In this document: piece by piece, positions 20,262-35,906 of the stretch | Layout of the letters: every line of letters starts with the position of its first letter | Numbering within the stretch: the first letter of the stretch is position 1 | Source of the DNA: Patescibacteria group bacterium | GTDB taxonomy: Bacteria > Patescibacteriota > Minisyncoccia > Phycocordibacterales > UBA2100 | Assembly (NCBI GenBank): GCA_015485505.1 | Contig: WFTK01000003.1 | Span: 1 to 59,993, forward strand | DNA length: 59,993 nt | Reading direction: 5' to 3' | Position numbers and translations under genes: made by a program | Notes under the pieces: generated by a model | Told to the model about the DNA's origin: nothing | The model's input: only the letters and a program-made list of their open reading frames with translations | Database searches by the model: none

Positions 20262-20262
20262 C

Positions 20263-20724
20263 ATGACAGATATACATAACAAAGTTAAAGAAGTGACTAC
20301 TACCCTACTTGGCAAGTTAGGAGTACACAATGGGGGTGTAGAGGTTAAGGAGGTTGCCGGGCAAACTCTATATTGTATTAAATCAGACGACAGTGGACTC
20401 TTAATCGGGCGCAACGGTGATGCCCTCCGCTCTATTAATATGTTGGTGAGTCACTTACTTGAGAGAGAGCTCGGAGAGAGGCAACGTATAACAGTAGATG
20501 TTAATGATTATAAACTCTCTAAGATAGAGGAGGTTATAAAGACTGCGCAGATGCACGCTAATAGAGCTAAAGAGCTTAGGTATGATGTAGAGTTGCAGCC
20601 TGCTAATGGCTATGAGCGCATGCTTGTGCATGCTCACCTAGCAAATGATCCAGAGTTAGAGACAGGCTCTATAGGAGAAGGCTCAGACCGCCGAGTGGTA
20701 ATTAAGTTTGTTAATTTTTCGTAA
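20263..20724 (+). CDS. jag: Jag/KhpB-type RNA-binding protein (KH-like plus R3H)
   Basis: LIGRNGDALRSINMLV (KH-like GxxG region) and the R3H-like segment ERMLVHAHL...RRVVIK. Position after yidC. Start at ATG 20263, 2 nt after the yidC stop. Confidence 0.8.
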   Translation: MTDIHNKVKEVTTTLLGKLGVHNGGVEVKEVAGQTLYCIKSDDSGLLIGRNGDALRSINMLVSHLLERELGERQRITVDVNDYKLSKIEEVIKTAQMHANRAKELRYDVELQPANGYERMLVHAHLANDPELETGSIGEGSDRRVVIKFVNFS

Positions 20725-21592
20725 AGTTTCTCCCATACATGAACTCTAGTGTTTCCTGGCTGCCACGACACACATCGGAAATTGTTCCTATTGATTCTAC
20801 TTTGAATCCTCTGTCTGCATCATATTTAGCCCTTTGGTTACAATTAGCCCTTGTTAAGCTATATATTCGCTGGTCTTTAGTTTCCGTACTATTAAAAATT
20901 GGTGCATCTTTAAGAGTATAGTAAAAGACAGTTATTGTTTTATTTGGTGGATACAACTCACATTTTTCAGGATTTTCTAAGACACATTGGTCTATACTAG
21001 AGAAGCATCGAGTGCTAGAGGTTTCAATCCCTGTGCCAGGATCATAGAAACAGGCTAAATAGTCATATTTTTCACCAGACTTTTCTTCATATAGTTTAGC
21101 TATTCTATTTCTAGCTGCTGCAGTTGCTTGTGACATTTCTAAGCTAGGTGCATTACCAAATAAAGCAAGGCTGGTTAATTGTGGGTTGATGGTATTGAGG
21201 GTTATGTAGGTGGCCAAGAGCATCAGGAGGCCTACTACCGCATTTTTCATCTTCTCCTTCCCTTTCGTTATGTTACCCGCATTGTCTCGAGCTGTTATCA
21301 AGTTAAGTCCACCCCAAATAAACATAAAAACAGCAAGCATAGCCCCAATACGTATAGAGAGAGCAAAGAGTTGATTGAATACCCCAGAGGCACTATCTGC
21401 TACCTGCACTGTCTCCCCTGGATTCCAACTATCTAAGAGTGGTATATCTGTGAGTGGAGTAAACTGCACAGCTTCAGCAGCATAAGCTACTGTGCCATAC
21501 AGTGTAAATAACATTATGAATATTATAGGTAGTATTGTAATAGTTTTGTATATTAAATGCCTTAACATAATTACTCTTTTATTATACTCCAT
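20711..21592 (-). CDS. Candidate T4SS pilin (TrbC/VirB2-like) with a long Cys-containing C-terminal extension
   Basis: Signal peptide ending AYA|AEA, then two hydrophobic helices separated by a short polar loop (LSIRIGAMLAVFMFIWGGLNLITARDNAGNITKGKEKMKNAVVGLLMLLATYITL). Last gene of the VirB4 operon. Alternative start ATG 21568. Confidence 0.4.
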   Translation of the reverse strand: MEYNKRVIMLRHLIYKTITILPIIFIMLFTLYGTVAYAAEAVQFTPLTDIPLLDSWNPGETVQVADSASGVFNQLFALSIRIGAMLAVFMFIWGGLNLITARDNAGNITKGKEKMKNAVVGLLMLLATYITLNTINPQLTSLALFGNAPSLEMSQATAAARNRIAKLYEEKSGEKYDYLACFYDPGTGIETSSTRCFSSIDQCVLENPEKCELYPPNKTITVFYYTLKDAPIFNSTETKDQRIYSLTRANCNQRAKYDADRGFKVESIGTISDVCRGSQETLEFMYGRNFTKN

Positions 21593-22821
21593 ATTGACTG
21601 ATCACGCTTGTTCTTAAAGAGTATTGTATCACCTAAGATTTGTGTATCTATTATATCAAGGCCAATAAACTTCTTTAACTCTATTGCACTACCACTCTTA
21701 GTATTAATGCGCCACAGAGAGTCAGAGAAGTTTGTTAAACCCTTATACCGCGAGTCTGGTAGGTTTTTATAATACTCTATATTAAATGGTATTGCACAGT
21801 ACACATCTATTGAGTCGTCGCCCCAAGCGCACTTACTTGCCAAGGTTGGGGTATAGAGCTGCGTAACCTCGCCCGTTGCGGTGTCTTTAATATATAGCCT
21901 AACACCACCCTTACCAGAGGTTGAGTATAGTAGGGTCTTGCCATTTGGTGAGAGATTTGTTATTAACCCTGGTAGGTCTCTGGCAAGAGTGGTCTCACCA
22001 CCCTTATTAGATATTAAGTAGGAGTAGCCTGGGATGTTATAAGAGGCCTTTTGAGTAACATATACATTAGTAGGAGTAGCCTGGAGTAGCCAATTACTTA
22101 GTGGAGAGCTCCATAGTGATATTGCTTTAACATCCCCCTCCCCTAACTGGGTATATAGTAGCTTTTTGATACTTGCCCCACCTTTGTCATTAGGGGTTAG
22201 ATAGTAAAGTGCCTTATCTGTTATTGCCACTTGTAGTATGTCATCATAGATAGTTGATTGCTTAACTACTGCGGAGTCAACCACTTTTGCTATATAAGGC
22301 CTAGTATCTTTAGGGACTATAAGTAGATACTCATTAGGTAGCGTATACACATCTCTTAAATTTGGTAGAGTCTCCTGAGAGAGCGTTGTGTGAGTGTCTT
22401 GCTTTGGTGAGTATGAGTTAATTACTCCGGTTTTAGCATCCGTATAATATAATTCCTCTGAGTTGGTGCCTAACTGTAGTACTGGGTCTGAGTATACTTG
22501 TTTAAGTATCCACTTTATAGGCTTAATTATCTTATTTGCGGTTTCTGGTTCTTCTGAGGCAGTCTCGGTAGAGTCATTTGTACTAAGAGCATTACCTATG
22601 TCATTAGTTGGTGTGGTATCTGCACTCTCTTTTTGAACTGTTGTAGGGTTTGTAGTGTTAGTGGGAGGTGTTGGTAGTATGGTTGGCTCTGGTATGGTTA
22701 TGTCTTGTGTCTCTGTTATAGAGGCCTCCTTTTTAGTAATATATGAGTACCAAGCAGCCAGACCAGTCAATAAGGCCATTATTATTAGTGTTGTGATTAT
22801 ATATATTTTGCGCTTGTCCAT
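21571..22821 (-). CDS. Membrane-anchored protein, T/P-rich linker plus beta-rich (propeller-like) ectodomain, unknown function
   Basis: N-terminal TM IYIITTLIIMALLTGLAAW, linker PTILPTPPTNTTNPTT. Operon position. Confidence 0.5.
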   Translation of the reverse strand: MDKRKIYIITTLIIMALLTGLAAWYSYITKKEASITETQDITIPEPTILPTPPTNTTNPTTVQKESADTTPTNDIGNALSTNDSTETASEEPETANKIIKPIKWILKQVYSDPVLQLGTNSEELYYTDAKTGVINSYSPKQDTHTTLSQETLPNLRDVYTLPNEYLLIVPKDTRPYIAKVVDSAVVKQSTIYDDILQVAITDKALYYLTPNDKGGASIKKLLYTQLGEGDVKAISLWSSPLSNWLLQATPTNVYVTQKASYNIPGYSYLISNKGGETTLARDLPGLITNLSPNGKTLLYSTSGKGGVRLYIKDTATGEVTQLYTPTLASKCAWGDDSIDVYCAIPFNIEYYKNLPDSRYKGLTNFSDSLWRINTKSGSAIELKKFIGLDIIDTQILGDTILFKNKRDQSIWSIIKE

Positions 22822-22827
22822 ATTATT

Positions 22828-23835
22828 TTATTGTACTGCATTAAATGGTGAGTCTACAACTGCATCAATATTGTCATTATTTATAGATGCGTCTTTGGGG
22901 ATACTTGGCAGAGAGTAAGATCTTTGAGCGGATTGAAATAGCTCCTCTGGGTTGGATACCTCTACAGAGATGTTAGTGCTATCCTCTCCCATGCTCACAA
23001 TTGTTATTGTGTCTGCTGTGTCACGAGTGTACTTCACCCCCGGTATATTCCAAGTGTATTTGAGTTGTTCCTCACTTGGTAGAGTTAAGTAAAACGGCAC
23101 AGCAGTGAAGCTCGGTTCCGACTCTTGTATATCTAAGATTGATGATGCTTGCAGGGCTGTATTGTATAGTACTCCCAATAATGGGTTATTGCGGTATAAT
23201 ATAAGCTCTGGATTGGTGAGTTGTATATTAGAGCCGGCTCGGCCAAGCAAGTTACCCTTAGCATCTGATACATCTACTGAGAGTATATAAGACCTATATG
23301 TTTGCGGTGCTTTGGTTATTAGTATATTAGCATCAGCTTGAGCAGATTGCTTAATAAGTTTGGTACCCTTATACCACTTAAATTGTAGAGGCTTTGGTAC
23401 GTTGTTATTAGGGTTGAGTTTAGCTACCGCCTTAATGTATGAACCATCGGTTGGTAGTGCCCTGCCCTTATACCATGGTGGCGTGATGGTTTGTGCCTCC
23501 CAGAGCAGGTCTATAAAGATCGGGTGCAGAGTGACAGACACAATTGGGAGATTACCTGCTTGTGCTGATACTTCAGCGCTCGCTCCTTCGCCAGGGGCTG
23601 TTACTTGTAGTGTGGTTGCACCTATACCCTCTTTAACTTGTTTGCTATTTATATACCAAGTTATATTTTGTGTATCTAAATTATATAAGAAGCTCTCTAA
23701 ACTTATGGTCACCTCCTCCCCAGGTGAGGGTGCCTCTGGGTCCATGCGCATAGATACACTTTTAAAAGCAAATGCCGATGAGTAACTGACAGGTATGAGT
23801 ATAAGTATAAAGACTACGGGTAATGATCGCTTCAT
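22828..23835 (-). CDS. Secreted protein, unknown function (T4SS-like operon)
   Basis: Signal peptide MKRSLPVVFILILIPVSYSSAFA. 335 aa ORF, 6 nt from the next gene. Confidence 0.5.
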   Translation of the reverse strand: MKRSLPVVFILILIPVSYSSAFAFKSVSMRMDPEAPSPGEEVTISLESFLYNLDTQNITWYINSKQVKEGIGATTLQVTAPGEGASAEVSAQAGNLPIVSVTLHPIFIDLLWEAQTITPPWYKGRALPTDGSYIKAVAKLNPNNNVPKPLQFKWYKGTKLIKQSAQADANILITKAPQTYRSYILSVDVSDAKGNLLGRAGSNIQLTNPELILYRNNPLLGVLYNTALQASSILDIQESEPSFTAVPFYLTLPSEEQLKYTWNIPGVKYTRDTADTITIVSMGEDSTNISVEVSNPEELFQSAQRSYSLPSIPKDASINNDNIDAVVDSPFNAVQ

Positions 23836-23866
23836 AACCGTATTATAACATTATCTTTATGAGTTT

Positions 23867-24352
23867 TTATGTAGACTGTTGTCTGTCTGCGGCAGTAGCT
23901 CCACGACGGCCTTTACCGTATCTTTTATTGCGCTCATTAACCTTTTGTATAGTTTTTAGCCTTCTGTTAATACGTTTTTTGCTATAGGCTATATCTTTAG
24001 TTATGTGCCTGCGCGCTAGGAGTCTTACAGTATTTTGTAAATCCTCTGGTAATACAGTATCTACTATACGAGATATTTTAATCTGTACCCACACAGTTAA
24101 GAATATAGCGGGTAAGTTACCAACTACGAGCTCTGATATAGGTAAGACTATACGCAAGAGCTTAAGAGCCCCTTTACCCTTTAATGTGAGAGCTCCACTC
24201 TCTAAAAATATAATACCAAATACCACAGCCGCTGTAAGGGAGACTACTATGTCTACAGCTACCGGAGTTGCAAACTGTATGCCATCAAATAAGAGTGCCA
24301 GCGACAACATGCCGAACTTTTTACTCTCGCCTATGCGGTAGTTAGCGCTCAT
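23867..24352 (-). CDS. Small polytopic membrane protein with a basic C-terminal tail (T4SS-like operon)
   Basis: Three or four hydrophobic segments. Begins 4 nt after the virB4 stop. Confidence 0.5.
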   Translation of the reverse strand: MSANYRIGESKKFGMLSLALLFDGIQFATPVAVDIVVSLTAAVVFGIIFLESGALTLKGKGALKLLRIVLPISELVVGNLPAIFLTVWVQIKISRIVDTVLPEDLQNTVRLLARRHITKDIAYSKKRINRRLKTIQKVNERNKRYGKGRRGATAADRQQST

Positions 24353-24356
24353 ATTG

Positions 24357-26225
24357 TTATAGTTCTACAGAGTCTAGAGTATTTTGCACAGAGTCTGTTG
24401 ATTCAGTGCTCTCTGCCAACTCCTTCTTAGCTTTTTTTATGGCTAGTATTTGAGAGGGGTCACTTGTAATTATCTGGTCCTCAGTATAACTAGCTATAAC
24501 CTTGATGGCCACATGCTTAAGACCAGCAAAGAAGATGCCCTCCCCCACGGCACTCTCTAGTAGTAGATACTTCTCCTCATCAGAGAGCTTGAAGGTCTCT
24601 TGTACAAGATCTACGGACGTTGGAGATTGTCTTAAGAGTATCTGCATTGAGGAGTTGGTAAGCATGGGCTTGCCATATTTAGAGTTGAGGAAGTCGGCGA
24701 CATCTTGAGTGATAGTAGCTAGGCCAAGGAAGTACTTACGCCCTCTCTTAGCTATACCGTATAAGAAGCTGGCAGTGTCGTCACTCTTCATCATCCACCA
24801 CGCCTCGTCTATTACCAAGAGTCGCTTCTTTAGCTCTTTGCGTACCATATTCCATATATGGTGAGTTATAATGTACATAGCTACAGGTTTAAGCTCATCT
24901 TCCATGTCTCTTACAGAGAAGACGATCAATCTCTTATTCATTGAGACGTTAGTCGCTTGGTTTAAGAAGCCGCTCCAAGTACCTTGAGTGTATTTAGTGA
25001 GTCGTTGTACTAAGCTCTCTGATCCCTCCATACCAGAGAGTACAAGGTGAAAGTCAGAGAGTATAGGAGGCTCAATATTAGAGAAGTTGCTTTGTGGGGT
25101 AATATCTTTAAGAGCGTATGTCTCCGTAATAGCCTTGTCTATTATAGAGTCCTCCTCAGGAGTTAACCCCCCAAGCATAATACGGAAGAGCCCAACAAGA
25201 GTGATAATGTTAGAGCGGAGGACGTCTGCCGGATTCTCATCCTCTCTTGGTATTGGTAGGTCAAATGGGTTTATATGGTGCTCGCTAGAGAGGGTGATGT
25301 TGAAGTAGCGCCCTCCTGCCGTCTCTGCTAAGTACTCGTACTCCCTCTCTGGGTCTATGATAATAACATCAGCATCAAACATTAAACTCCTTAAGATCTC
25401 AAGCTTCATCATATAGCTTTTGCCGGCACCAGACTTGGCGAAGACTACTGAGTTATAGTTCTCTAAACTAAAGCGATCAAAGAGCACCAAACTAGAGTTA
25501 TGCCTATTGATACCGTATAAGATCCCTCTGTCGGAGGTGAGGTCAAATGATACGAATGGGAAGAGACTTGAGAGTGGGTCGGAGTTTAGCTTGTTGCGTA
25601 CATTAAGCTCATCGTTAGCTAATGGTAGTACACTCTTGAGGCCCTGCTCTTGCTGGAAGAGTGCCGGCTTAATATACACAAGGCGCGCCTCGAGTATAGA
25701 GCGGATCTCTGTCTCTATCTTATCTATCTCCTCTCTACTGTCTCCATATATGGTTATATATAACCCAGCTTCAAAGAGTTTCTCTTGGGCTTGTTGTAGC
25801 CTGTCACGTAGGTACTCTAGGTCGGCATATGCTGTGTCTAGCTTTGGGTCTCGCACAAGACCCTTCTCTTCTCTTATTAAGATTTGACTCTCTATCTCAG
25901 CAACTCTCTTTTGGAATTGGCGCAGTATTGTGGTCGTGTCTAATGGGTGGATGTGTATAGCAATGTCAAACATCTTATCTAGGTTGATTATTGGAGAGAA
26001 CCACCCAGTAGTTAAGAATCTAGGATATGAAATCACGAAGAAGGTACGGGCCATCTTCTCCCCTAGTGAGAGGCTTTTAGAGGTTATCTGTAGCGCAGAA
26101 GGTGCTATAACATCTTGTAGCTCTAGCACTCCTTGCTCGTAGATTTCAGCTGGCAATACAGGCATTACTTTTGTGTCAGCATTTTCAGTTAGTTTATTCT
26201 TTTTAAATTTGTCTAATAATCCCAT
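24357..26225 (-). CDS. virB4: VirB4/TrbE-family type IV secretion ATPase
   Basis: Walker A VFAKSGAGKSYMMK, Walker B RLLVIDEAWWMM (the DEAW typical of VirB4), C-terminal motifs TQDVADF and SMQILLRQ. Confidence 0.85.
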   Translation of the reverse strand: MGLLDKFKKNKLTENADTKVMPVLPAEIYEQGVLELQDVIAPSALQITSKSLSLGEKMARTFFVISYPRFLTTGWFSPIINLDKMFDIAIHIHPLDTTTILRQFQKRVAEIESQILIREEKGLVRDPKLDTAYADLEYLRDRLQQAQEKLFEAGLYITIYGDSREEIDKIETEIRSILEARLVYIKPALFQQEQGLKSVLPLANDELNVRNKLNSDPLSSLFPFVSFDLTSDRGILYGINRHNSSLVLFDRFSLENYNSVVFAKSGAGKSYMMKLEILRSLMFDADVIIIDPEREYEYLAETAGGRYFNITLSSEHHINPFDLPIPREDENPADVLRSNIITLVGLFRIMLGGLTPEEDSIIDKAITETYALKDITPQSNFSNIEPPILSDFHLVLSGMEGSESLVQRLTKYTQGTWSGFLNQATNVSMNKRLIVFSVRDMEDELKPVAMYIITHHIWNMVRKELKKRLLVIDEAWWMMKSDDTASFLYGIAKRGRKYFLGLATITQDVADFLNSKYGKPMLTNSSMQILLRQSPTSVDLVQETFKLSDEEKYLLLESAVGEGIFFAGLKHVAIKVIASYTEDQIITSDPSQILAIKKAKKELAESTESTDSVQNTLDSVEL

Positions 26226-26232
26226 AATATCT

Positions 26233-26895
26233 TTAAGTATTATTTTCGTTAGCTCCTTGTTGCATCGGTTGGTCTAGCTCGCCAGGGTTAAATATTTTAT
26301 ATAGCAACTCTACAATCTCCTCTGTGCCGAGTTGTACCGTGCGCACTCCGGAGCGCACGAGGCCCTGCTGTACAATAGAGACTCTCTGCTCAAGCTGAGA
26401 TACATTCTCGTCAAAAGATAAATCTACCTTTGGGGTTGTACCCTTTTTACTCCAAGGCATTTTGCTTAATATGCTGGAATTAGACACATTAATAGTTGCT
26501 GGTGTATATGGCACAATAACAAAGAAATGTTTCGTCATTATGTTAGCCGCTTCTGTAAAGCTCTTGATAAAGTCTATATACTCGCGAATCTGTATACGCA
26601 TCAGCTCGTCTATAGTCTCTTTTAACCTATCCTCAAGAGTGGCTATATAGGGGCGTATATCTAACTTACGTGATTGTATAGATATCTGCACAGAGAAGTC
26701 TAGAGAGTTAAGGAAGTTTTGAAATTGCATTATAAAGGCATTTTGCTCATCCTCACTCTTGAGGGCAAAGTTGAGTGAGCTTGCCATCAGGACCGCCCGC
26801 AGACCACCATTTTTAAGTGTTACTATACCATCTCGTACCTCTTTAACAGGTACGAAGTCTTGAGATGGTCTGGTCTTTTTGGCTTTTGTTGGCAT
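26233..26895 (-). CDS. Protein resembling the N-terminal domain of Gram-positive VirB4-type ATPases (no P-loop)
   Basis: SQDFVPVKEVRDGIVTLKNGGLRAVLMASSLNFALKSEDEQNAFIMQFQNFLNSLDFSVQI matches the pattern I recall at the N-terminus of Tn916 ORF16/PrgJ-like ATPases. Lies directly upstream of virB4. Confidence 0.35.
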   Translation of the reverse strand: MPTKAKKTRPSQDFVPVKEVRDGIVTLKNGGLRAVLMASSLNFALKSEDEQNAFIMQFQNFLNSLDFSVQISIQSRKLDIRPYIATLEDRLKETIDELMRIQIREYIDFIKSFTEAANIMTKHFFVIVPYTPATINVSNSSILSKMPWSKKGTTPKVDLSFDENVSQLEQRVSIVQQGLVRSGVRTVQLGTEEIVELLYKIFNPGELDQPMQQGANENNT

Positions 26896-26908
26896 TGGTA
26901 TTATATTG

Positions 26909-27367
26909 TTATATTGTACTTAGTACATTTTGCTCGGTTATGCTCTTGGCATGCTCTGCTCTCTGTACATTTTCATTAATGTCTAGGCTCCAGGCAAGGT
27001 CCTTCATCTTACTATCGTTAATATTAGGTACCTCTACCTGACTTTTAGGTTGCTCTGAGGTTATCTGTTTATTCTTCTTCTTAACCTTCTTCTTATGACT
27101 CCATAAGTATAGCTTATTGCGCACAGAGTAGTAGAAGGCGGACTCTAATATATTTATAAAGGGCTGGTTGTTGATTTTGTAAAAAGCCAATGCAAGAGAA
27201 AGGCCTGCTACGGGTGCCACAAGTAAGTAATTAAGCCCGGTAGGCAATGATTGGAGTATTGCATAAGAGAGGCCGGTGCCACCCAGAATGTATATAAACT
27301 GCTTAAAGGTGAACGGCCCTATTATCTTGTCTTCAACATCTTGGAATTGTGGTACGGGGTATTGCAT
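26909..27367 (-). CDS. PrgI-family / VirB3-like small membrane protein
   Basis: MQYPVPQFQDVEDKIIGPFTFKQFIYILGG followed by two TM helices, the layout of PrgI/VirB3-like proteins. Confidence 0.45.
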   Translation of the reverse strand: MQYPVPQFQDVEDKIIGPFTFKQFIYILGGTGLSYAILQSLPTGLNYLLVAPVAGLSLALAFYKINNQPFINILESAFYYSVRNKLYLWSHKKKVKKKNKQITSEQPKSQVEVPNINDSKMKDLAWSLDINENVQRAEHAKSITEQNVLSTI

Positions 27368-27414
27368 ATAAATATATTATACCACCCTTAAAGACTAGGC
27401 ATTAAGCATATCCA

Positions 27415-27930
27415 CTACTCTATAGGCTCATGGTATGGATCATCTACCTTTGATGTACTATTTACTTTGGGAGTATATGTTGATGGATTTGTAGGAGCCT
27501 CGGAGAACTTACTGATGTCTATAGGGTTCTTCGCAGGAGTAGTATCGTCTATAGTCTCTAGTGTACTCTGCGCCTCCCCCACCTGCTCTTTTAAGGACTC
27601 TTGTATAGGGTCAAAGACTATAGCTATCACAGCCTCTGTTATCTTATTAGCTTGCTCGGGTGTAAGGCCAACATCCTTAACTATATTCTCCGGCAAGTCT
27701 TGAGGTTCTGTAATACCTAATAATGCCAGCATAATCTCATTCTCTAACAAGCGCCACTTATCAAGGTGTAGGCTATAGGCCTTAGAGAGTTCTCGGAGCT
27801 TAGCTTGTACATCTGCATTAGCTATAGTCTCTTGTACCACTTTAGGTAGTGAGTTATAAGCATCTTTTATTTGTTGTTGTATATCTGCCTCTTGCATATT
27901 AATTGTTTTATCTTTGTGTGCCTTCAGCAT
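27415..27930 (-). CDS. Acidic helical protein, unknown function (T4SS-like operon)
   Basis: 171-aa ORF with no TM segment. Overlaps the upstream gene by 23 nt. Confidence 0.45.
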   Translation of the reverse strand: MLKAHKDKTINMQEADIQQQIKDAYNSLPKVVQETIANADVQAKLRELSKAYSLHLDKWRLLENEIMLALLGITEPQDLPENIVKDVGLTPEQANKITEAVIAIVFDPIQESLKEQVGEAQSTLETIDDTTPAKNPIDISKFSEAPTNPSTYTPKVNSTSKVDDPYHEPIE

Positions 27931-28258
27931 TTAGCCTTTTAAAGTCGGCTATGGTGTCACCTATTACAGTATTGGCTATCTTGTCTATTTTATCTCGTTC
28001 TATATGCTTTAAGAAGATGACTTCAACGGCCTCGCTCTGTCCAGACTCAAGTAGAGTATTAACATGATCCATTATCTCCTCTGGTAGCTGAGAGACTAAC
28101 GCTATGGCAATTCGGTCTAATATTATTGTGCTTAGTTTGGTTATAATCTCAGCTTGCTCCTCCCTACTCAGGTGGGTCAAGTCTAGTTGCTCTACAAGTT
28201 TATTGCGAATCTCCTTAACCTCTGGGGGTGCTTGAGTGTTTATGCTATTAGTATCCAT
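27908..28258 (-). CDS. Small acidic helical protein, unknown function (T4SS-like operon)
   Basis: 116-aa ORF in operon context. Confidence 0.45.
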   Translation of the reverse strand: MDTNSINTQAPPEVKEIRNKLVEQLDLTHLSREEQAEIITKLSTIILDRIAIALVSQLPEEIMDHVNTLLESGQSEAVEVIFLKHIERDKIDKIANTVIGDTIADFKRLNAEGTQR

Positions 28259-28302
28259 AGTGTATTTATATTAACATATTAATTCATTGATAATTTAGCA
28301 AG

Positions 28303-29628
28303 TTACGAGTTACCCATATGCATCCAGAGAGTGCTCAATGTACTGGCTGTAGCAACTGCTAGACTCGTCTTTTTTTGTCTATCTTTGAGTTCTGGGAGTC
28401 GTTGGTCTAAGATATTCCTAAGTGCTGTACGAGATATTTTATGAAAGGCCGTTCCACGCGTAGGAGGCTCGCTCCAGAGCCTCTTGAGAGTCTCTCTTAC
28501 TATTTTAATGTTAGGTTTATGTAAGTATATACCCTCCTTTCTATCAAGCTGTTTATTAAATTCGTATAAAGTCTGTAAGAGCTGAGCATCATATAGCCGG
28601 CTACCTGACTCTCCGCGCTTGTTCCACAGTGCGCTGCCGACTAATCCGGCTCCACCTCCGGCCACAGAGTACCCTACGTGTGCTAGTACCCCGGCTCCAC
28701 CTGTAAGGGCTCCCGCTGTTATAGCTCCACCTACAGGCAATATGGTGTGCCCTATTGCTCTGCGTATATCTAGAATCTTTTTATATTTTTTGTCTTTAAG
28801 TAGTTGTTCTATAGTCATATTCTTTGGGGCTTTAGCTTCTGAGTCATTATTTATCTTTTGGTAATACCAATCAAGAGATTCTTGCTCCATTTCTTCTATA
28901 GAATTTAATTCTATATTTATGCCGTGCTTCCGTGCTATGTCTCTATCTATGGGGCTACTTGCATCGAACTCATCACGCGGTAGTAAGCTCAAATTATACT
29001 TACCCGCAAATTCATCAGCTGCGCCTCCTAAACGGATTATATCAGTAGTATTATTACGTATAATATCTTCACTTACGTGGGGGCTTGCTAAAGCTACAAT
29101 TTGTTTACTTAGTTCATCTGCTAAGGGGTCTAAGTATTCAAGGTATTCATCGATGGTTTTACTTACACGTATATAAGTGGCGAGTCGAGCATATCTATTA
29201 ACTACTTGTTCTATTTTACTCCTATTTCCTTTATCAATTTTGTCTCCAGACTCTTTTAGTATGTTTGTTATAAAATGCTGGTTTTCTCTTCTTAAATACC
29301 TGGTAAGTATCTGTTCCCTCTTAAGCCCCTCAGGCGTATCATTATATATATTAGGTACAGGCAAATTTGGATTTTGTATCAAGGCTTTTATATCATCTGT
29401 AAGCTCCTCTGGTGACTCACCTGAGTGTTTTTTAGGTGTAGGACCTTCAACAACCTCTGTACTGTTACTTATTTGGTGTATTTTGGGATTATGGTGAGGG
29501 TATAAGAAGCTAGGTATATTATTTTTATCCATACGGTGCAGCATCATCTCCTCATCATGCGTCTCACGTAAAAGCTCCTTTTGCTTGTCGGTCAATAGCT
29601 CTCCTGGTCTCTTCTCAAACTTTGGCAT
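28303..29628 (-). CDS. Unknown protein with a C-terminal Gly-rich membrane segment (T4SS-like operon)
   Basis: 441 aa. GGAITAGALTGGAGVLAHVGYSVAGGGAGLVGSAL near the C-terminus. Starts 2 nt after the upstream stop. Confidence 0.5.
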   Translation of the reverse strand: MPKFEKRPGELLTDKQKELLRETHDEEMMLHRMDKNNIPSFLYPHHNPKIHQISNSTEVVEGPTPKKHSGESPEELTDDIKALIQNPNLPVPNIYNDTPEGLKREQILTRYLRRENQHFITNILKESGDKIDKGNRSKIEQVVNRYARLATYIRVSKTIDEYLEYLDPLADELSKQIVALASPHVSEDIIRNNTTDIIRLGGAADEFAGKYNLSLLPRDEFDASSPIDRDIARKHGINIELNSIEEMEQESLDWYYQKINNDSEAKAPKNMTIEQLLKDKKYKKILDIRRAIGHTILPVGGAITAGALTGGAGVLAHVGYSVAGGGAGLVGSALWNKRGESGSRLYDAQLLQTLYEFNKQLDRKEGIYLHKPNIKIVRETLKRLWSEPPTRGTAFHKISRTALRNILDQRLPELKDRQKKTSLAVATASTLSTLWMHMGNS

Positions 29629-29629
29629 A

Positions 29630-32089
29630 CTATTTTTCCTCTTTAGTAGCGTCTTTATTAGCTTCTTTTACTGCATCAGATATATTCTTATCTTTGCTAG
29701 AGAGTGCCGCAAGTAACGCTTTACGTACCTTGGCGTCCTCTTCTTGTTTAGCTATGTCGCTTTTACTCATACCGGCTTTTTGCATTTGCTTAGACATAAA
29801 CTTTAGATTTGCTGTGTGTTGTCCTAATAACTTATTTAGCTTATTTAATGAGTCTGGGTTCATTGTAGCTATAACGTCTGCAGACGGCATCGATACAACC
29901 TTGTTATTTTTATCAAATTGTATACCTAGTTGCTCTAGCCAATCTCTGTCTGTAGTTGATAGACTGCTGGCAGCTTTAGCAAGACGAGTTTTACTTATTG
30001 TCTCTTGCCACTTTTGTTCGTAACTCTTTAATGTGCGGTCTAGCTCTTGTATTTGGTCTTGGTAGTTGGTGTGTTGTTTCTCTAACTCATCAATCTCACG
30101 TTTGTGTGCAGTAATTTGGGCATCACGCTCTAGTTGCTTTAACTTATTCTCTTCTTGTATCCTACTTAAGTTTGCTTTAGCTATACTTAATTCATCGTGA
30201 GTCCTTTGTGCCTCTTCTTTTAATTTCTCTGCCTCTTGTAATGTATTTGAGTGAGTTTGTATTCTTGCTTGAGTATCTGACTTTTCTTTACTTAACTCGG
30301 CGATCTCTTTATTTAAGCTGTCAAAGTCTGCATTACCCACACTTAGTCCATCAGCTCGTAACTTCTCCAGCTCTAATGATTTACTATCTAATTTAGCTTC
30401 GATGTTTTTAATTTTACTTGTCTCCTCAGCCATAAGAGCACCTGCCTCTTGTGCGGTATTGCTGGCCTGCTTACTCCTCTCCTCGATCTCTGTAACTTTA
30501 CGCTCTTTCTCTTCAACTGTCTTCTGAGCTGCTTGCTGAGCCGTAGAGTCGTCTTTATTTTGTTTCTCCAGCTTTCTCATTTCGGCTTCTTGCTTTTTAA
30601 TCTGTTCTTCTAGATCCTTTTGCGCCTTTTGTGCTGCTGTCTTGGCACCCTTTGTGGCGTTATATACCCCACTACCCTCTGCAATAGCCTCTTGTACTTG
30701 CTTTAGCTGAGCCTCATCATGTTTTTTGTCATACTTTTCTCTTTGTTCTTTGATCTTTTTAAATCCGTCTGTAACACCCTTACCTAAGTTAATACCAGCC
30801 TGCTCCATGAACTTTTGTGCATTTTTATTTTGACGGATATCATATGAGGAGTTTGCCACGCTCTTAAGTGCACCACTATTTGCAAGAGAGTTTAATCCGC
30901 GACTTAGTCGAGCACTATTGGTACTATCAGCCCACTTGCCTAACCTGTCACTCATATAACTTGCACCACGGCCGAGAGTGCCTCTACCTGCCCAGCCTGC
31001 AGATGCTATAGCTGGTCTACTTACGGTTCTTTGTGCCCAGTTCATAAGTCCATTTACTCTGCCTCCAATAGCGCCCATAGAGTCCGCGGCTTTGTTAGAG
31101 AGTATCGTAGAGATACGTATTGCTCCCCAAAGTAGACCTATACCTATTAAGAATTTAACTATAACTAAAGCAAAACCACTATCTAGTGTACCAGTGGTAA
31201 GCTCACCGCCTGCAATACTCCCACTAGACTTTAGCGGTCCCATTACCTCCATTAACTTAGTGACCATAAATAGAGTTAAAAGCAGTATTGGTGCTAGTAG
31301 AGAGTTATATAAAAGACCATTGCGCCAAGATATCCAATATTTGTTAAGTGCCGGTATAAGCATGGCGGCGAAGGCGAAGGAGGATGTTGCCAAAAGGATA
31401 AACAATAATATTGCCCTAGCTATAAACATAAATGCCATACGGAAGAACATTATCGATGCAAGTAGGGTCAATACAAGTGTGGCCGTAAATTGACCTACGA
31501 TACTGGCGAAGTCATTAGTATTAGTTGTAGTATCTAACTCTTCTGAACCAATATATTTTTTAAGTGAATCCCAAGTCTTAGACAGTAGTTCACCCGTCAT
31601 CTCTACGCCATTCATATTCGTTACAATTATATCTGCCAAGCCCTCATTTTGTATTGATTGCACGTTACCTGCTTTATCCTTTGGTAGCATGGCGTTGTAT
31701 GTTTGGACAGACATCCAGTTGGTGATGTCTATAGCAGTGAGGGTGAAGAAGAAGCTAAAGTTGATGAGGATGGCTACTGTCAGTAGTGTAACTATCTCTC
31801 TACGGTAGTCCTTACTAATACTAAGTATCTTAGATATAGCAATATAAACAAAGGCACCGATTATAAGGATATTTGATATATCTCGTATCATTAGCCATAT
31901 ACTCTTTATTGCAGACATTAGTCCAGTATCTCCAGACTGGCCCTTAACAGTTTTATAGAACTCTAATACGGTATAGTTTAAAGAGGAGTCAAACATGCTA
32001 ACAGAAGCCCAAAGCATGATGCCAGGCACAATTATAAGTAGTGCTATTTTACCTCCAAGACCCGCTAGATTTAACGCTAGGTTTAACAT
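29630..32089 (-). CDS. VirB6/TrbL-like polytopic membrane protein fused to a ~400-aa coiled-coil tail
   Basis: At least 7 hydrophobic helices in the first ~370 aa, then a K/E/Q/A-rich heptad-like sequence up to the C-terminus. Confidence 0.45.
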   Translation of the reverse strand: MLNLALNLAGLGGKIALLIIVPGIMLWASVSMFDSSLNYTVLEFYKTVKGQSGDTGLMSAIKSIWLMIRDISNILIIGAFVYIAISKILSISKDYRREIVTLLTVAILINFSFFFTLTAIDITNWMSVQTYNAMLPKDKAGNVQSIQNEGLADIIVTNMNGVEMTGELLSKTWDSLKKYIGSEELDTTTNTNDFASIVGQFTATLVLTLLASIMFFRMAFMFIARAILLFILLATSSFAFAAMLIPALNKYWISWRNGLLYNSLLAPILLLTLFMVTKLMEVMGPLKSSGSIAGGELTTGTLDSGFALVIVKFLIGIGLLWGAIRISTILSNKAADSMGAIGGRVNGLMNWAQRTVSRPAIASAGWAGRGTLGRGASYMSDRLGKWADSTNSARLSRGLNSLANSGALKSVANSSYDIRQNKNAQKFMEQAGINLGKGVTDGFKKIKEQREKYDKKHDEAQLKQVQEAIAEGSGVYNATKGAKTAAQKAQKDLEEQIKKQEAEMRKLEKQNKDDSTAQQAAQKTVEEKERKVTEIEERSKQASNTAQEAGALMAEETSKIKNIEAKLDSKSLELEKLRADGLSVGNADFDSLNKEIAELSKEKSDTQARIQTHSNTLQEAEKLKEEAQRTHDELSIAKANLSRIQEENKLKQLERDAQITAHKREIDELEKQHTNYQDQIQELDRTLKSYEQKWQETISKTRLAKAASSLSTTDRDWLEQLGIQFDKNNKVVSMPSADVIATMNPDSLNKLNKLLGQHTANLKFMSKQMQKAGMSKSDIAKQEEDAKVRKALLAALSSKDKNISDAVKEANKDATKEEK

Positions 32090-32127
32090 ATTCTTATTTT
32101 ATATTGTGAGAAACCGAGCATACAGAT

Positions 32128-33867
32128 TTAATTCTTCTCTTGGTCGCGCCATTTTGTTGGGTCGCACCATGACGCTTCCCACTGTGAGCTTGTCTCGGTT
32201 ATAAGGTCTGACATTGATGATTGTATCTGTGCTTGTTGATCTTGAGCTATCAGTACATCTGAGGTTTTGTGCAACGTGCCACTTGCAACTAGTTGATCTA
32301 TCTCCCCTAGCACAGCGCGTGTCTCAGTTGGGGTAGTAGCAGATGAGAGTCTTACTTGTAAATCTGTTAGCTTGGTGAGGGCTGCGTTAGAGTCTTCAAG
32401 ATTTTGCTTTATTGTGGCCAGTAGAGGTACTATGTCTGTTGTGAGCACTGATAAGTAGTATTTGGTAGTACGCAGTATTGTAGCCTCAGCCTTATTCCCC
32501 CCACCTGCTGCTACTATATCAATGTCTATTGTCGTCTCTTGGGTGTCTGTGAGAGGGTCCTCACCATATGGAGGCTCCTCTGTGCTTGGTGTAGATATGG
32601 CAGTGCCGTTAACGGTATTGAGCTCAGCCAGCAAGTCTACCTTTGCTTGTGCTACTAAGCCACCCCAGCATGCGGCATCTTTGGTTTGTAGAGCTTGGAT
32701 CGTGCGGTTGATGGTGTCAAATGATGCTTTACGTGCCATGTTATACTCAGACTCGGCTATTATAGCTTTAGATAGGGTGTCATTTGCTATTGATGTATAC
32801 TGCCCTCTGGCACGTGCAGCAGAGTCCTGGACTATCCTATCTAAGAAGGAAAGCCCGCCATTGATGGAGTCTGGCAAGCCCTTAAGACCGCCTACACTTG
32901 TGAGTATTTGAGTGTGTATGTTACTCATGAGAGAGCCTATAAGTTCACCCGTTGCGTCGGCATTTTCTAGCTGTCTCTGGCCTGTTAGAGATGTGTAGCT
33001 TATGATATCCTTAACAACAGCGCCTGGAGTGACTATCTGCTCTACCTCCTCAAACTCGCCATTACCCTTAGGTATACGCTTCTTCTCCTTTTTAGACTTG
33101 AAGCCATCTCCCCAGCCTAATAGGGTAAATTCGTCTTTTATTTTCTCCTCCTTGTCTTTTTGTAATTGGTCGGCTGCCCCCAAGTATACTAGTAGCGGGT
33201 TGTTCTCTGGAGAGATGACCTTTAGGTAAATGTCTTTATTAAATCTACCTTTGCCGTTTAAGAAGTCTTTAAATGCCTGCTGCTCCTCACTCGGTACGCT
33301 ACAACTATATGACACCTCGGGGTTATTAACCTCTCTGTCGGTCTGAGCTTTTAGAGTCTTTTTTACATCTTCTTTAAAGGGTTCACAGATGTTCTCTGTC
33401 CTTGGGCCAGAGATAAAGTCGTCTGTTACTTTTGTTTTGAGATCGTCTCTAAATTTCTTTGGGTTTTCCTCAAAGGCTGGTTGATTAGCAGCCCAAGAGA
33501 GAGTGCTCTTGGCCATTGCGGCTATCATCGTCTCACGAATGCGAGTTACTACTCCGTCTAAGATACACTGCTTATACAAGAGTATATTTGTATTAGTGAT
33601 GGTTGCTTGATCTGCAACGGGTACAAATACACCTTGTGCCCTTTCCGCCCCAACAGAGCCATACTTACCTCCCTCACAGCTATATAGCCCCTCTGTGCTA
33701 TAGCCCTCGGGTATAGAGTCGCTGTCACCTACTGTCGGCAATGGGTCACCTGGAGTGACTGTAGTGTCAGTGGTCTGTGCGGTAGCCGTCTGAGCAAATA
33801 ATAAGAACACTACTATTAATAGTATGGCGAGTTTATCAGTATTGTTTTGTGTGTGTGTCTTTATCAT
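32128..33867 (-). CDS. Secreted protein, unknown function (T4SS-like operon)
   Basis: Signal peptide LAILLIVVFLLFAQTATA. 579 aa. 4-nt overlap with the upstream gene. Confidence 0.5.
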   Translation of the reverse strand: MIKTHTQNNTDKLAILLIVVFLLFAQTATAQTTDTTVTPGDPLPTVGDSDSIPEGYSTEGLYSCEGGKYGSVGAERAQGVFVPVADQATITNTNILLYKQCILDGVVTRIRETMIAAMAKSTLSWAANQPAFEENPKKFRDDLKTKVTDDFISGPRTENICEPFKEDVKKTLKAQTDREVNNPEVSYSCSVPSEEQQAFKDFLNGKGRFNKDIYLKVISPENNPLLVYLGAADQLQKDKEEKIKDEFTLLGWGDGFKSKKEKKRIPKGNGEFEEVEQIVTPGAVVKDIISYTSLTGQRQLENADATGELIGSLMSNIHTQILTSVGGLKGLPDSINGGLSFLDRIVQDSAARARGQYTSIANDTLSKAIIAESEYNMARKASFDTINRTIQALQTKDAACWGGLVAQAKVDLLAELNTVNGTAISTPSTEEPPYGEDPLTDTQETTIDIDIVAAGGGNKAEATILRTTKYYLSVLTTDIVPLLATIKQNLEDSNAALTKLTDLQVRLSSATTPTETRAVLGEIDQLVASGTLHKTSDVLIAQDQQAQIQSSMSDLITETSSQWEASWCDPTKWRDQEKN

Positions 33868-34673
33868 ATGCTTGTGTCGTAGACTCCCTTAAGGATGAAG
33901 TAAGTTTTAAGATCCTCAAAAGCGCGCCCAAGCTCCTCCTCAGCTTGAGAGAAGTTGGCTGTGCCAGAGAGGCTCGCAGCCGGGTCGTCGTAACCTTTAG
34001 AGAGCTCTGTAAGTATAACAGAGAATTTGCGCAAGCTATTAACTATAGCTAAGTGTACGGCTGATACGTCTTTAGGTACAGGGACTTTTAGTACCTCTAG
34101 TGCGGCATTGTTGTATACAGTTGCTATATTAGCTAGAGAGTCAAAGTCGTCTTTAGAGTTGTCTCTTATAGCGCGGGCATATATTGTGAGCTCATACTCC
34201 TTAAGGTTAAAGATCGGTTGCAGTGCTTGTTGTAATTGAGTTTTATAGATCTCAACAGCGGGTTTACTTGTGTCGGTTATTATATTAAGCTCCGTGGCTG
34301 TTGTGGGAGTAAAGTTGAGTTGTAGCATGTAGTCTGTGGCCCTCTCTACTATTTGTTGTCCACTCTCTGGAGTATAGTTGCCATCTTTAAGTTGTTTAAG
34401 GTACGGACCTATTACATTGCGGGTTAGTATGTCAGTCTCTGTTAGTGACTCCGGCTCGTCTGTTGCAGAGTTGTCAGTAGAGTCTTCTGTCGGGCTATTA
34501 TCAGGGTTATATACCAGCTTATCGTCAGTAGTAGCTGTATTTTGTACTGGTGTTTCAATGATTATAGGTGTACTGTTGCGCTTATTGCTTATATAAAATG
34601 CTCCTCCAATTATAAGTACACCCAATACGCTGGACACTAACAACTTTTTACTTAGTACAAGAGGCTCACCCAT
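33864..34673 (-). CDS. Single-pass membrane protein, T/D-rich linker plus helical ectodomain (T4SS-like operon)
   Basis: TM LLVSSVLGVLIIGGAFYI. Same architecture as 34692-35573. Confidence 0.5.
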   Translation of the reverse strand: MGEPLVLSKKLLVSSVLGVLIIGGAFYISNKRNSTPIIIETPVQNTATTDDKLVYNPDNSPTEDSTDNSATDEPESLTETDILTRNVIGPYLKQLKDGNYTPESGQQIVERATDYMLQLNFTPTTATELNIITDTSKPAVEIYKTQLQQALQPIFNLKEYELTIYARAIRDNSKDDFDSLANIATVYNNAALEVLKVPVPKDVSAVHLAIVNSLRKFSVILTELSKGYDDPAASLSGTANFSQAEEELGRAFEDLKTYFILKGVYDTSI

Positions 34674-34691
34674 ATGGCTATTATAGCACTA

Positions 34692-35573
34692 CTATAAGCT
34701 GGGAGGCATGAATATATCCCCACCCTCACCTTTATTAAACTTGATGCCATAGAGCTTGAAGATCTTTGCAAATTTGATATAGCTCTTTGCAAATTCGTCT
34801 ACCGTGGCATTGTACCTATATATCTCATCTAGTAGGTCCTTGTCTGAGACTTTACCTACTAGGGCTATTGTTGCCTCCCCTACCTTTTTATAACCTTCAC
34901 TGAGTTTAGTGACAGGCTCTACTAAGGGTATGGGGGCTTGTGCTACTTTGAGACTCTCGGAGAGGGTTATGTATTGTTGCCCTAGTTGGAGCAGAGCGTC
35001 GCCCGTTTGTTGACTCTCTCTGTCGTCTACAAAATTTTGTATTAATTGGGGTTGATCTCCAGCCTTGAGCGTAAACTCTTTTATAGTGTTGCCAACCTCA
35101 TTACCATAGTCATATATTGCCAGCTCTAGTGGTGTTTTGCTAGGGGTTGGTGTTTGCTCTTGCGATGTACTTGGTTGTTTGGTTGGTAGCCATGACCACA
35201 GGTCAGATATATAGTCTGGTAGTATTGATTGTTCTTTTGGTTCATCTGTTATGGTTGTAGGCATAGACTTTGTTGGTGGAGGAGATGTGGGTTCGTCGTT
35301 ATTAACAACCACCACTTGAGTCGTAGTGTCTTTAGTTTGTTGCCAATCTGGTAGAGAGTCAGCTTGCGGTTTAGGAGTGTCACTTTCTCTAGGAACAAAT
35401 GCATTGTATTTAGTTACCGGCCTTGTCTGCATCACCTCTACATTAGAGAAGGTGTCAGATTCTTGCTCGGTAACGCTTATCATCTGTTTTATTAATATAG
35501 CCGCTGATAGCAACACAACAGCCATAAAAGCTAATATTAGTATAAATACCAGTCTTTTATTATCTTTTATCAT
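34692..35573 (-). CDS. Single-pass membrane protein, T/P-rich linker plus helical ectodomain (T4SS-like operon)
   Basis: TM LVFILILAFMAVVLLSAAILI. Likely a distant paralogue of 33864-34673. Confidence 0.5.
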   Translation of the reverse strand: MIKDNKRLVFILILAFMAVVLLSAAILIKQMISVTEQESDTFSNVEVMQTRPVTKYNAFVPRESDTPKPQADSLPDWQQTKDTTTQVVVVNNDEPTSPPPTKSMPTTITDEPKEQSILPDYISDLWSWLPTKQPSTSQEQTPTPSKTPLELAIYDYGNEVGNTIKEFTLKAGDQPQLIQNFVDDRESQQTGDALLQLGQQYITLSESLKVAQAPIPLVEPVTKLSEGYKKVGEATIALVGKVSDKDLLDEIYRYNATVDEFAKSYIKFAKIFKLYGIKFNKGEGGDIFMPPSL

Positions 35574-35574
35574 A

Positions 35575-35898
35575 TTATCTACTTGAGCCCATCATCATGA
35601 TTAACCATCCGGGTCGTACATCTAATGGCAATACTGTGACAAGGCAAAAGTAGCTAGGGCCAGCATTACCAAGCAGCCATTGACCTCTGCGAGTAGGTGG
35701 GCCAAAAGAGTATGTATCAGTTATAGATGGACTCCACAAGTACTCACCACCTCTTGGTGGTCCTAATACGGTATATGTGACCATGTTTAGACAACCTATA
35801 ATTGTGTTTATGGGCCCGCCAAAGCTTATTGCAGCCGCAGCAGTATTGGGTACAACTAACGTTAATAGTAACATTATAGCTATTGCATATTTACGCAT
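35575..35898 (-). CDS. Small secreted protein, first gene of the T4SS-like operon
   Basis: Start set at MRKYAIAIMLLLTLVVPNTAAAA (signal peptide). The longer tracked ORF would overlap the rsmA 3' end. Confidence 0.45.
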   Translation of the reverse strand: MRKYAIAIMLLLTLVVPNTAAAAISFGGPINTIIGCLNMVTYTVLGPPRGGEYLWSPSITDTYSFGPPTRRGQWLLGNAGPSYFCLVTVLPLDVRPGWLIMMMGSSR

Positions 35899-35906
35899 TG
35901 CTTTGA

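Follow-up and report, generated by a model that had tools for sequence, protein, structure and literature searches.

We analyzed a stretch of 59,993 nucleotides (60 kb, in the following the window) at the start of contig WFTK01000003.1 in the assembly GCA_015485505.1 of a Patescibacteria group bacterium. The window carries a run of 15 genes on the minus strand (20711-35898), which we interpret, with a probability of roughly 0.75, as a chromosomal, origin-proximal type IV secretion system (T4SS) of the Patescibacteria in its Paceibacteria (Parcubacteria) form, descended from the mating-pair-formation type MPF_FATA and not serving as a conjugation module. That the locus is a T4SS of the Patescibacteria type is in itself very probable, and a role in non-conjugative host interaction, by analogy with the Saccharimonadia, is fairly likely. 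Patescibacteria T4SSs without a relaxase and located near dnaA and ksgA have already been described in print (2023-2025), and the locus is a further example with the Paceibacteria arrangement. A first-pass annotation, made from the sequence alone, had described the run as probably not conjugative and had considered host contact in an epibiotic lifestyle among its possible roles. Profile matches, predicted structure and synteny support this view, and it matches what is described in two papers on these systems (PMC12102498; PMC10633639).

Five of the genes show affinity to T4SS components. Genes are numbered g1 to g15 in the order of transcription:

24357-26225 (-): g11, VirB4 ATPase of the CD1110 / MPF_FATA kind, without an N-terminal domain of its own (NCBIfam, Pfam, BLAST)
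26233-26895 (-): g10, predicted TrsD-like stand-alone VirB4 N-terminal domain (NCBIfam and Pfam)
26909-27367 (-): g9, PrgI/VirB3-like small membrane protein (Pfam PF12666 PrgI)
20711-21592 (-): g15, VirB2-like T4SS pilin module (residues ~66-135) with a Cys-containing C-terminal extension of ~160 aa (Pfam PF18895)
29630-32089 (-): g5, putative extended VirB6-like polytopic membrane protein (transmembrane (TM) prediction, AlphaFold2 (AF2)/Foldseek, hhalign)

The best NCBIfam model for g11 is NF045971 for CD1110-family VirB4 (371.9 bits, cut-off 325), with model positions 185-733 of 752 covered. The protein also matches Pfam P-loop_TraG (7e-26) and is 25% identical to PrgJ of the plasmid pCF10 (E 1e-40), the aligned part being PrgJ residues 228-772 only. 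The Walker A residues G266, G268, K269 and S270 and the motif D473-E474-A475-W476 are invariant across 17 homologues (alignment A1), so that the VirB4 with Walker A and DEAW motifs proposed in the first-pass annotation is well founded. In a representative library clustered at 50% identity, g11 has 9511 relatives at E<=1e-3, and its exact sequence was found in the assembly GCA_027000585.1 and in an ENA metagenome scaffold. We infer that g11 belongs inside the published VirB4 clade of the Patescibacteria.

Only four recognisable T4SS components had been counted before, but g10 adds a fifth. It matches the NCBIfam models VirB4_plasma (4.9e-13, model positions 98-233), TrsD (4.6e-6), CD1110 VirB4 (1.2e-5, model positions 2-124) and VirB4_CagE (2.6e-4), and a precomputed Pfam match assigns it to PF26593 TraC-like. 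Pairwise BLAST of g10 against the N-terminus of PrgJ was negative, and a PDB profile search gave no significant match. At the level of profiles, g10 thus appears to provide the N-terminal domain which is absent from g11. A recent frameshift in a fused gene was considered as the origin of the two genes and dropped, because the N-terminal extension of the VirB4 homologue P0004 (836 aa), the one homologue tested, is not similar to g10. The split is kept in 52 of 52 relatives. Among the VirB4 homologues P0001-P0150 of the representative library, many are 800-1260 aa long and carry N-terminal extensions, and the N-terminal architecture of VirB4 seems to be variable in this set.

The PrgI/VirB3-like protein and the VirB2-like pilin candidate of the first-pass annotation both lie above the cut-offs of their Pfam families: g9 matches PF12666 with E 5e-7 (30.6 bits, cut-off 27) and g15 matches PF18895 T4SS_pilin with 8.9e-9 (35.8 bits, cut-off 26.6). 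For g15 there is also a weak NCBIfam match to the Mbov_0395 pilin-like family; a comparison with TrwL/VirB2 by hhalign was not significant, and the pilin assignment is taken from the PF18895 match alone. In the g15 family (alignment A11) the conserved module ends in NTINP, and the C-terminus after it is hypervariable, so that the whole proteins measure 106-774 aa. This pattern suggests a fusion of pilin and adhesin.

The polytopic protein g5 had been called VirB6-like. It is predicted to have about seven TM helices in residues 1-330, followed by a C-terminal coiled-coil of ~450 aa. No Pfam or NCBIfam family matches g5, the C-terminus giving only weak SMC-like coiled-coil matches. An AF2 model of the N-terminal 420 aa, built from 16 sequences, has a mean predicted local distance difference test score (pLDDT) of 66.8 and a predicted template-modelling score (pTM) of 0.60. 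When this model was compared with the PDB by Foldseek, each of the seven best matches was a TrwI/VirB6 chain of R388 (E 5e-3 to 0.1, probability 0.99-1.0, target-normalised TM-score 0.40-0.52). In hhalign, g5 matches PrgH of pCF10 (E 9e-4) and TrwI (E 4.5e-3) over overlapping parts of its profile and with low probability, and in the PDB profile search TrwI is the second match (E 3.1). These signals are weak but agree with each other, and with moderate confidence we regard g5 as an extended VirB6. The order g5-g9-g11 matches that of prgH-prgI-prgJ, which together with the profile and structure matches supports the identity of the membrane core.

Related systems are known from several sources. 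In the saccharibacterium Southlakia epibionticum an apparent T4SS is encoded by SEML1_0006-0019 (Wang et al., 2023; PMC10633639). Transposon sequencing (Tn-seq) showed that epibiotic growth requires this Saccharimonadia T4SS, including its pilins, and the same paper describes the system as having no recognisable coupling or relaxase proteins. A survey of 2,474 virB4 genes in Patescibacteria (Quiñonero-Coronel et al., 2025; PMC12102498) reports a distinct VirB4 clade related to MPF_FATA, with TrsD as the most abundant associated component and with PrgI/VirB3, VirB6 and VirB2-like pilins near virB4. Homologues of VirB8 or VirB1 are very few according to the same survey, and relaxases occur in only 103 genomes. 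Above all in Paceibacteria and Microgenomatia, the virB4 genes are found near dnaA, dnaN, ksgA (= rsmA), rnpA and rpmH. The group is reported as monoderm (PMC12857230 and PMC12102498). In a 2025 review it was speculated that T4SS and pilus together act as a conduit through which signals pass or host molecules are taken up (PMC12857230). A 2026 preprint describes a cultivated Microgenomatia parasite which takes up host RNA and forms tubular structures to the host that "may be T4SS pili"; the mechanism was left unresolved there.

For a comparison with relatives, one genome per species was scanned with the VirB4 protein g11. This gave at least 595 relatives, of which the best 80 (VirB4 70-80% identical) were analyzed. 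All of them are metagenome-assembled genomes of Patescibacteria, and those specifically named belong to the Paceibacteria/Parcubacteria (Kaiser-, Nomura-, Zambryski-, Taylor- and Lloydbacteria). Open reading frames (ORFs) were called in the related loci and searched by iterated phmmer/hmmsearch from each window protein. Counts refer to homologues at the expected position on the same strand, upstream of VirB4 over 52 loci with >=9 kb of flank and downstream over 58 loci with >=4.5 kb of flank:

g2/3, upstream: 45/52 loci
g4, upstream: 45/52 loci
g5, upstream: 49/52 loci
g8, upstream: 50/52 loci
g9, upstream: 51/52 loci
g10, upstream: 52/52 loci
g12, downstream, directly after VirB4: 28/58 loci
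g13, downstream: 54/58 loci
g14, downstream: 55/58 loci
g15, downstream: 53/58 loci, in 1-2 copies

With a mean column identity of 56%, g10 is the best-conserved neighbour of VirB4. The lower count for g12 is probably due to the fast evolution of this family. The typical order is rsmA, g2/3, g4, g5, g8, g9, g10, g11, (g12), g13, g15, g14, dnaA, dnaN, with ORFs of the size of dnaA and dnaN usually coming next after the cluster. An rsmA homologue was detected in 37 related loci and lies just upstream of the cluster wherever its position was checked. The family of g2 and g3 is usually present as a single copy; two copies occur in 3/52 loci, and the window has a tandem pair. The order g14 before g15, as in the window, is found in a minority of loci (5/53). 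The synteny proposed as a check in the first-pass annotation is thus strongly conserved in the best 80 relatives. Because of this conserved order across 80 genomes, g2/3, g4, g8, g12, g13 and g14 can be taken as six real lineage-specific accessory families. The conserved core comprises 11-12 genes. The earlier treatment of all 15 genes as one system has to be corrected for a clade-specific insert, g6-g7, and for g1, which in relatives is encoded on the opposite strand.

The accessory genes of the conserved cluster are:

34692-35573 (-): g2, bitopic protein with N-terminal TM segment, T/P/D-rich linker and C-terminal domain of ~150 aa; paralogue of g3
33864-34673 (-): g3, tandem paralogue of g2
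32128-33867 (-): g4, secreted protein of 579 aa with 6 Cys, immediately upstream of the VirB6-like g5
27415-27930 (-): g8, cytoplasmic acidic protein with N-terminal helical domain, variable Pro-rich middle and C-terminal DPY[RH]EP
23867-24352 (-): g12, small polytopic membrane protein (3-4 TM segments, basic C-terminal tail)
22828-23835 (-): g13, secreted protein with Ig/PKD-like repeats
21571-22821 (-): g14, bitopic protein with T/P-rich linker and TolB-like beta-propeller

Searches of the unknown proteins against Pfam, NCBIfam, PHROGs and PADLOC gave no significant match, and therefore they are not part of a known phage, defence or other characterised system; membership in such a system had been named in the first-pass annotation as one of the findings that would speak against its reading. 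Its expectation that most components would be new families was right as far as these four model collections go, but the system itself had already been published. Iterated HMM (hidden Markov model) searches seeded by g2 or by g3 reach the same 51 ORFs. The single TM-like segment of g2 is located at residues 10-28, and the family consensus (A6) shows an acidic linker motif DxDxDGxxDWEE..TDP and a conserved VP..A..HL motif; PDB profiles gave no match for g2/g3. In g4 a signal-like segment is found at residues 13-31, followed by conserved motifs (alignments A3 and A9). There is no Pfam, NCBIfam or PDB match for g4, and tblastn against plasmids was negative as well. Its AF2 model has a mean pLDDT of 59. 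Only the long helical hairpins of residues ~360-579 are modelled with confidence, the conserved N-terminal half being of low confidence. The Foldseek matches of this model (flagellins, microtubule inner proteins) were discarded as meaningless similarities of generic helical bundles. An assignment of g4 as VirB5 was rejected after a negative hhalign comparison with TrwJ.

The g8 protein has no TM segment and no significant PDB match. Its homologues are 105-599 aa long and are encoded directly upstream of PrgI; D164, P165, Y166 and E168 are invariant or nearly so (alignment A7), the C-terminal DPY[RH]EP being almost invariant. In the fast-evolving g12 family (A10), D23 and P81 are conserved, and no similarity to PrgF or PrgG was found. 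For g13, with a signal-like segment at residues 5-23, the PDB profile search returned phage Hoc (5e-4), a PKD domain and a phage decoration protein, in addition to a weak Pfam PKD_6 match. The TM segment of g14 lies at residues 6-24, and its propeller is indicated by a PDB profile match to TolB (2.9e-3) and by weak PD40 and TolB matches in Pfam and NCBIfam. Comparisons of g2/g3 and of g13 with VirB8/PrgL were negative.

With surface-type proteins of this kind, the locus could also be read as an organelle for adhesion only, in which VirB4 builds a fibre of pilin-adhesin subunits, the C-terminal domains of g15 serve as host-binding tips and no substrate is translocated. The conserved pilin module with its hypervariable C-terminal domain in the g15 family fits such a fibre, the Ig-like g13 and the propeller of g14 are typical of surface proteins, and no type IV coupling protein (T4CP) is encoded nearby. 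We nevertheless consider this reading quite unlikely. The conserved cytoplasmic g8 with its invariant C-terminal motif suggests cytoplasmic partners or cargo, and so may the predicted ~450-aa coiled-coil of the VirB6-like g5, depending on the side of the membrane on which it lies. Moreover, adhesion in Saccharimonadia already comes from separate type IV pili (PMC12857230; PMC12102498).

The position of the locus in the genome bears on the question of conjugation. The following landmarks flank it:

16135-19218: dnaN, dnaA, rpmH and DnaA-box clusters, the origin region (Pfam and gene calls)
17487-18860: dnaA (Pfam/gene calls)
35907-36680 (-): rsmA/ksgA (Pfam RrnaAD, 7e-51)
36697-38739 (-): uvrD (Pfam UvrD-helicase, 3e-86)

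Together, dnaA, dnaN, rpmH, rnpA, yidC and jag span 16135-20724. The operon converges on jag, yidC, rnpA and rpmH and ends ~2 kb from dnaA. Clusters of DnaA boxes are located on either side of dnaA (17292-17451 and 18888-18993) and include two perfect boxes (TTATCCACA). The locus had been described as chromosomal and next to the origin, and the adjoining dnaA, dnaN and DnaA-box clusters agree with this. All 17 genes from uvrD to g15 (20711-38739) point toward the presumed oriC (17292-18993); if the origin corresponds to the DnaA-box clusters flanking dnaA, these genes are head-on to replication. Most relatives show a similar arrangement, with the T4SS genes leading into dnaA-dnaN on a common strand.

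Neither a T4CP of the VirD4/TcpA type nor a relaxase was found by Pfam and NCBIfam among the 15 operon proteins, ~38 flanking ORFs of the window and the 10 kb to its left; oriT was not searched. The same proteins contain no VirB11, and VirB7, VirB9 and VirB10 were not found by these models in the 60-kb window or the adjacent 10 kb. The absence of a T4CP, a relaxase and an outer-membrane core, noted in the first-pass annotation, therefore extends to the neighbouring 10 kb. No cell-wall hydrolase domain was found in any of the 15 proteins (Pfam, NCBIfam). It is conceivable that the locus is nevertheless a conjugative or DNA-exporting T4SS whose T4CP and relaxase are encoded elsewhere and which mobilises chromosomal or element DNA: VirB4 proteins of this family otherwise occur in conjugative elements of monoderms, VirD4-like T4CPs exist in many Patescibacteria genomes far from virB4 (PMC12102498), and ~70 kb of this genome were covered. 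Such a function is very unlikely. The adjacent genes include no relaxase, T4CP, oriT-associated gene or integrase, and the GC content of the locus (0.40-0.45) is the same as that of its surroundings. In dozens of species the locus keeps its chromosomal place beside dnaA, which is unlike the behaviour of a mobile element. PMC12102498 gives, besides the small number of genomes with relaxases mentioned above, the result that in Southlakia a distant T4CP is not essential whereas the other T4SS genes are.

DNA uptake had been listed as an option, with reference to comM and pilB. A DNA-uptake (competence) machine similar to Helicobacter ComB or archaeal Ced, working with comM (46232-47755) and the type IV pilus genes, could draw on a weak and partial NCBIfam match of VirB4 to CedB (2.4e-11, far below cut-off), on comM and pilB in the window and on the co-localisation of ABY1-class T4SS loci with comF, recG and radA (PMC12102498), but it is highly improbable, since the CedB match covers the generic ATPase core only, comM and pilB are 20 kb and 10 kb distant amid housekeeping genes, and deletion of comEC in the saccharibacterium Southlakia abolishes competence without affecting viability whereas the T4SS is essential (PMC12857230), so that the essential role of the T4SS is not ComEC-dependent DNA uptake.

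For the favoured reading, a non-conjugative T4SS of the Patescibacteria, a mechanism can be proposed from R388 and pCF10. PrgI and the TrsD-like domain would dock a VirB4 hexamer at the membrane, where the VirB6-like protein serves as the platform. Such hexamers may pull pilin-like subunits from the membrane and polymerise them into a short pilus or tube. From their predicted topology, g2/3, g4, g13, g14 and the C-terminal domain of g15 would be extracytoplasmic and span the wall or contact the host, and g8 would work on the cytoplasmic side. The machine may move proteins or other macromolecules between epibiont and host, and not its own DNA. By transfer from the genetics of Saccharimonadia, the machine would serve a host interaction on which growth depends, and neither conjugation nor DNA uptake via ComEC. 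A more specific version can be formulated, which we consider rather unlikely as a whole: the six accessory families and g15 would form a Paceibacteria-specific envelope and host-contact module that makes a monoderm conjugation core a pilus-bearing conduit importing host macromolecules, e.g., RNA, as proposed for the Microgenomatia parasite. Here g8 would act as a cytoplasmic adaptor via DPYxEP and g4 as a functional analogue of VirB5 on the VirB6 platform.

Several points weigh against the interpretation as a non-conjugative host-interaction T4SS. The function is carried over from experiments in Saccharimonadia, which are a different class with a different set of accessory genes. A distant T4CP or relaxase may exist, as the negative results on both apply to ~70 kb of the genome; PMC12102498 lists 5,713 VirD4 homologues for 2,918 Patescibacteria genomes, most of them at a distance from virB4. 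Neither a VirB8-like nor a VirB1-like component was detected among the operon proteins, which leaves the crossing of the wall unexplained. For individual genes, the TrsD score of g10 is far under the curated whole-protein cut-off (26.6 vs 200 bits), the VirB6 scores of g5 are weak (Foldseek E 5e-3, TM-score ~0.3-0.5, pLDDT 67), and the large C-terminal domain of g15 may be incompatible with a canonical VirB2 filament. That the genes form one transcript is an assumption.

With regard to the layout, ORF calls and Pfam agree with the earlier description of 15 consecutive co-directional genes directly after uvrD and rsmA; the end of the run is 35946 if g1 starts with GTG. The spacers from g1 to g15 are 1, 18, -4, 38, 1, 44, -23, 47, 13, 7, 4, 31, 6 and -22 nt. 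The tight spacing that had been reported is correct, but the largest spacer is 47 nt instead of 45 nt. The gaps from uvrD to rsmA (16 nt) and from rsmA to g1 (8 nt) are short as well, and both genes are possibly part of the same transcript. A scan for promoters and terminators found fewer promoter-like sites than in shuffled sequences and no convincing internal terminator, and it is uninformative on operon structure.

Three genes of the run are peripheral to the conserved cluster:

35575-35898 (-): g1, small secreted protein with signal peptide and a two-Cys domain of ~85 aa ending in GSS
28303-29628 (-): g6, clade-specific protein of 441 aa with a Gly-rich hydrophobic hairpin near residues 295-335
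27908-28258 (-): g7, clade-specific small acidic protein of 116 aa

No Pfam, NCBIfam, PHROG or PADLOC match was found for g1, which is called in one of two public annotations. Its family occurs between rsmA and g2 in 16/52 related loci (e.g., L005:2045-2386 (-) and L007:1235-1549 (-)), in 15 of these 16 on the opposite strand, which indicates an inversion of this single gene in the present lineage. The Cys-containing domain is found elsewhere as C-terminal domain of other proteins. We regard g1 as a conserved neighbour and not as an operon member, and its membership in the system is doubtful. The genes g6 and g7 are inserted between the VirB6-like g5 and g8 (27908-29628). Neither has a homologue in the 80 related loci at a threshold as permissive as E 10, and a scan of JGI metagenomes found no relative of g6. 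A search of 5.8 billion proteins returned one homologue of g6 (43% identity) in the sister genome GCA_021129475.1 (L085:92-1978), where the order g6, g7, g8, PrgI, TraC-like, VirB4 is the same as in the window. A 7.5-bit resemblance was found between g7 and part of the g8 profile. Extra ORFs between g5 and g8 in the related locus L005 were considered as g6 homologues and rejected, as they are alternative-frame ORFs inside g5. The pair g6-g7 is a recent clade-specific addition and may encode cargo or an accessory factor.

Several further features were observed in the flanks. Type IV pilus genes are dispersed: a lone pilB (9231-10982 (+)) lies between tsaE and ruvB, and pilM (L086:18481-19443), followed by three small unassigned genes, is located ~8 kb left of the window. 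PilB is the VirB11-superfamily ATPase of type IV pili and is not adjacent to the operon. A protein with LysM and peptidase M23 domains is encoded at 40448-41467 (+), 14 genes upstream of virB4, on the other strand than the operon and with uvrD and murA in between; according to PMC12102498, some proteins with LysM/M23-type domains were counted as VirB1-like in that survey. Four co-directional genes at 920-6376 (-), 3' of polA, encode three proteins without Pfam match (214, 612 and 563 aa) and a 406-aa protein with an SLT lytic-transglycosylase domain (920-2140), a possible cell-wall or surface module ~20 genes from virB4. No integrase had been noticed in the first-pass annotation, but a Xer-like tyrosine recombinase (Phage_integrase and SAM-like N-domain) is encoded at 53282-54280 (+); it is probably XerC/D, is not T4SS-associated and is not adjacent to the operon. 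A pair of perfect DnaA boxes (TTATCCACA), spaced by 20 nt, occurs at 57835-57863 (-), far from dnaA and near tRNA-Gly and a UPF0102 gene. The divergent spacer of 173 nt that separates uvrD from the probable start of murA (~38913) contains, at 38733-38833 (+), the best sigma-70-like site of the region (TTGACA-16-TACAAT with TG) and, after it, a GC-rich hairpin of 12 bp with a T run. This could be a leader or attenuator, and an Rfam search gave no match there.

Patescibacteria represent a large share of bacterial diversity and are host-dependent. Tn-seq in Saccharimonadia made their T4SS the first example of such a system that is essential to its own carrier, and it may be the physical link to the host. 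The locus is no new kind of system and serves as a clean Paceibacteria example, in which the core can be set apart from the g6-g7 insert and the neighbour g1. The six syntenic families without a model and the g6-g7 insert are targets for structural and genetic work on wall crossing and cargo.

Compared with known systems, the similarity to the MPF_T type (R388 Trw and Agrobacterium VirB) consists in the predicted fold of g5, which resembles TrwI/VirB6, and in the VirB2-type pilin module, whereas VirB5, VirB7, VirB8, VirB9, VirB10, VirB11 and VirD4 were not found in the locus by Pfam, NCBIfam or hhalign. Within MPF_FATA, the pGO1 Trs subclass with TrsD has a small homologue of the VirB4 N-terminus beside VirB4 (PMC12102498), and g10 matches TrsD/TraD with the 4.6e-6 given above; this subclass is described there as being without a VirB6 homologue, in contrast to the locus with its putatively VirB6-like g5. 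The order prgH-prgI-prgJ of pCF10 Prg/Pcf from Enterococcus faecalis, the prototype of MPF_FATA, is mirrored by g5 ... g9 and g10/g11, and PrgJ is annotated by NCBI with the NCBIfam family CD1110, the same family as g11. The T4CP PcfC, the relaxase PcfG, the hydrolase PrgK, the VirB8-like PrgL and the adhesins PrgA/B/C of pCF10 have no detectable counterpart in the operon. Moreover, pCF10 is without a pilin and has an unsplit VirB4, in contrast to the VirB2-like pilin and the split VirB4 of the locus.

The closest similarity is to the published T4SS of the Patescibacteria. The T4SS of Southlakia differs in having an array of six pilins, whereas the locus encodes a single pilin-like protein that is extended by a long C-terminal part, and in having a peptidase or lysozyme gene directly downstream of virB4, where g12, g13, g14 and g15 are found here (PMC10633639). 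The families of g2/3, g4, g8, g12, g13 and g14 are not named in the available excerpts of PMC12102498 and PMC10633639, and g6 and g7 are specific to the clade of this locus. Shared with the published systems are the MPF_FATA-related VirB4 with a TrsD-like protein beside it, PrgI/VirB3, a VirB6-like protein (putatively g5) and a VirB2-like pilin, the lack of a relaxase or T4CP nearby, and the chromosomal position near dnaA, dnaN, ksgA, rnpA and rpmH.

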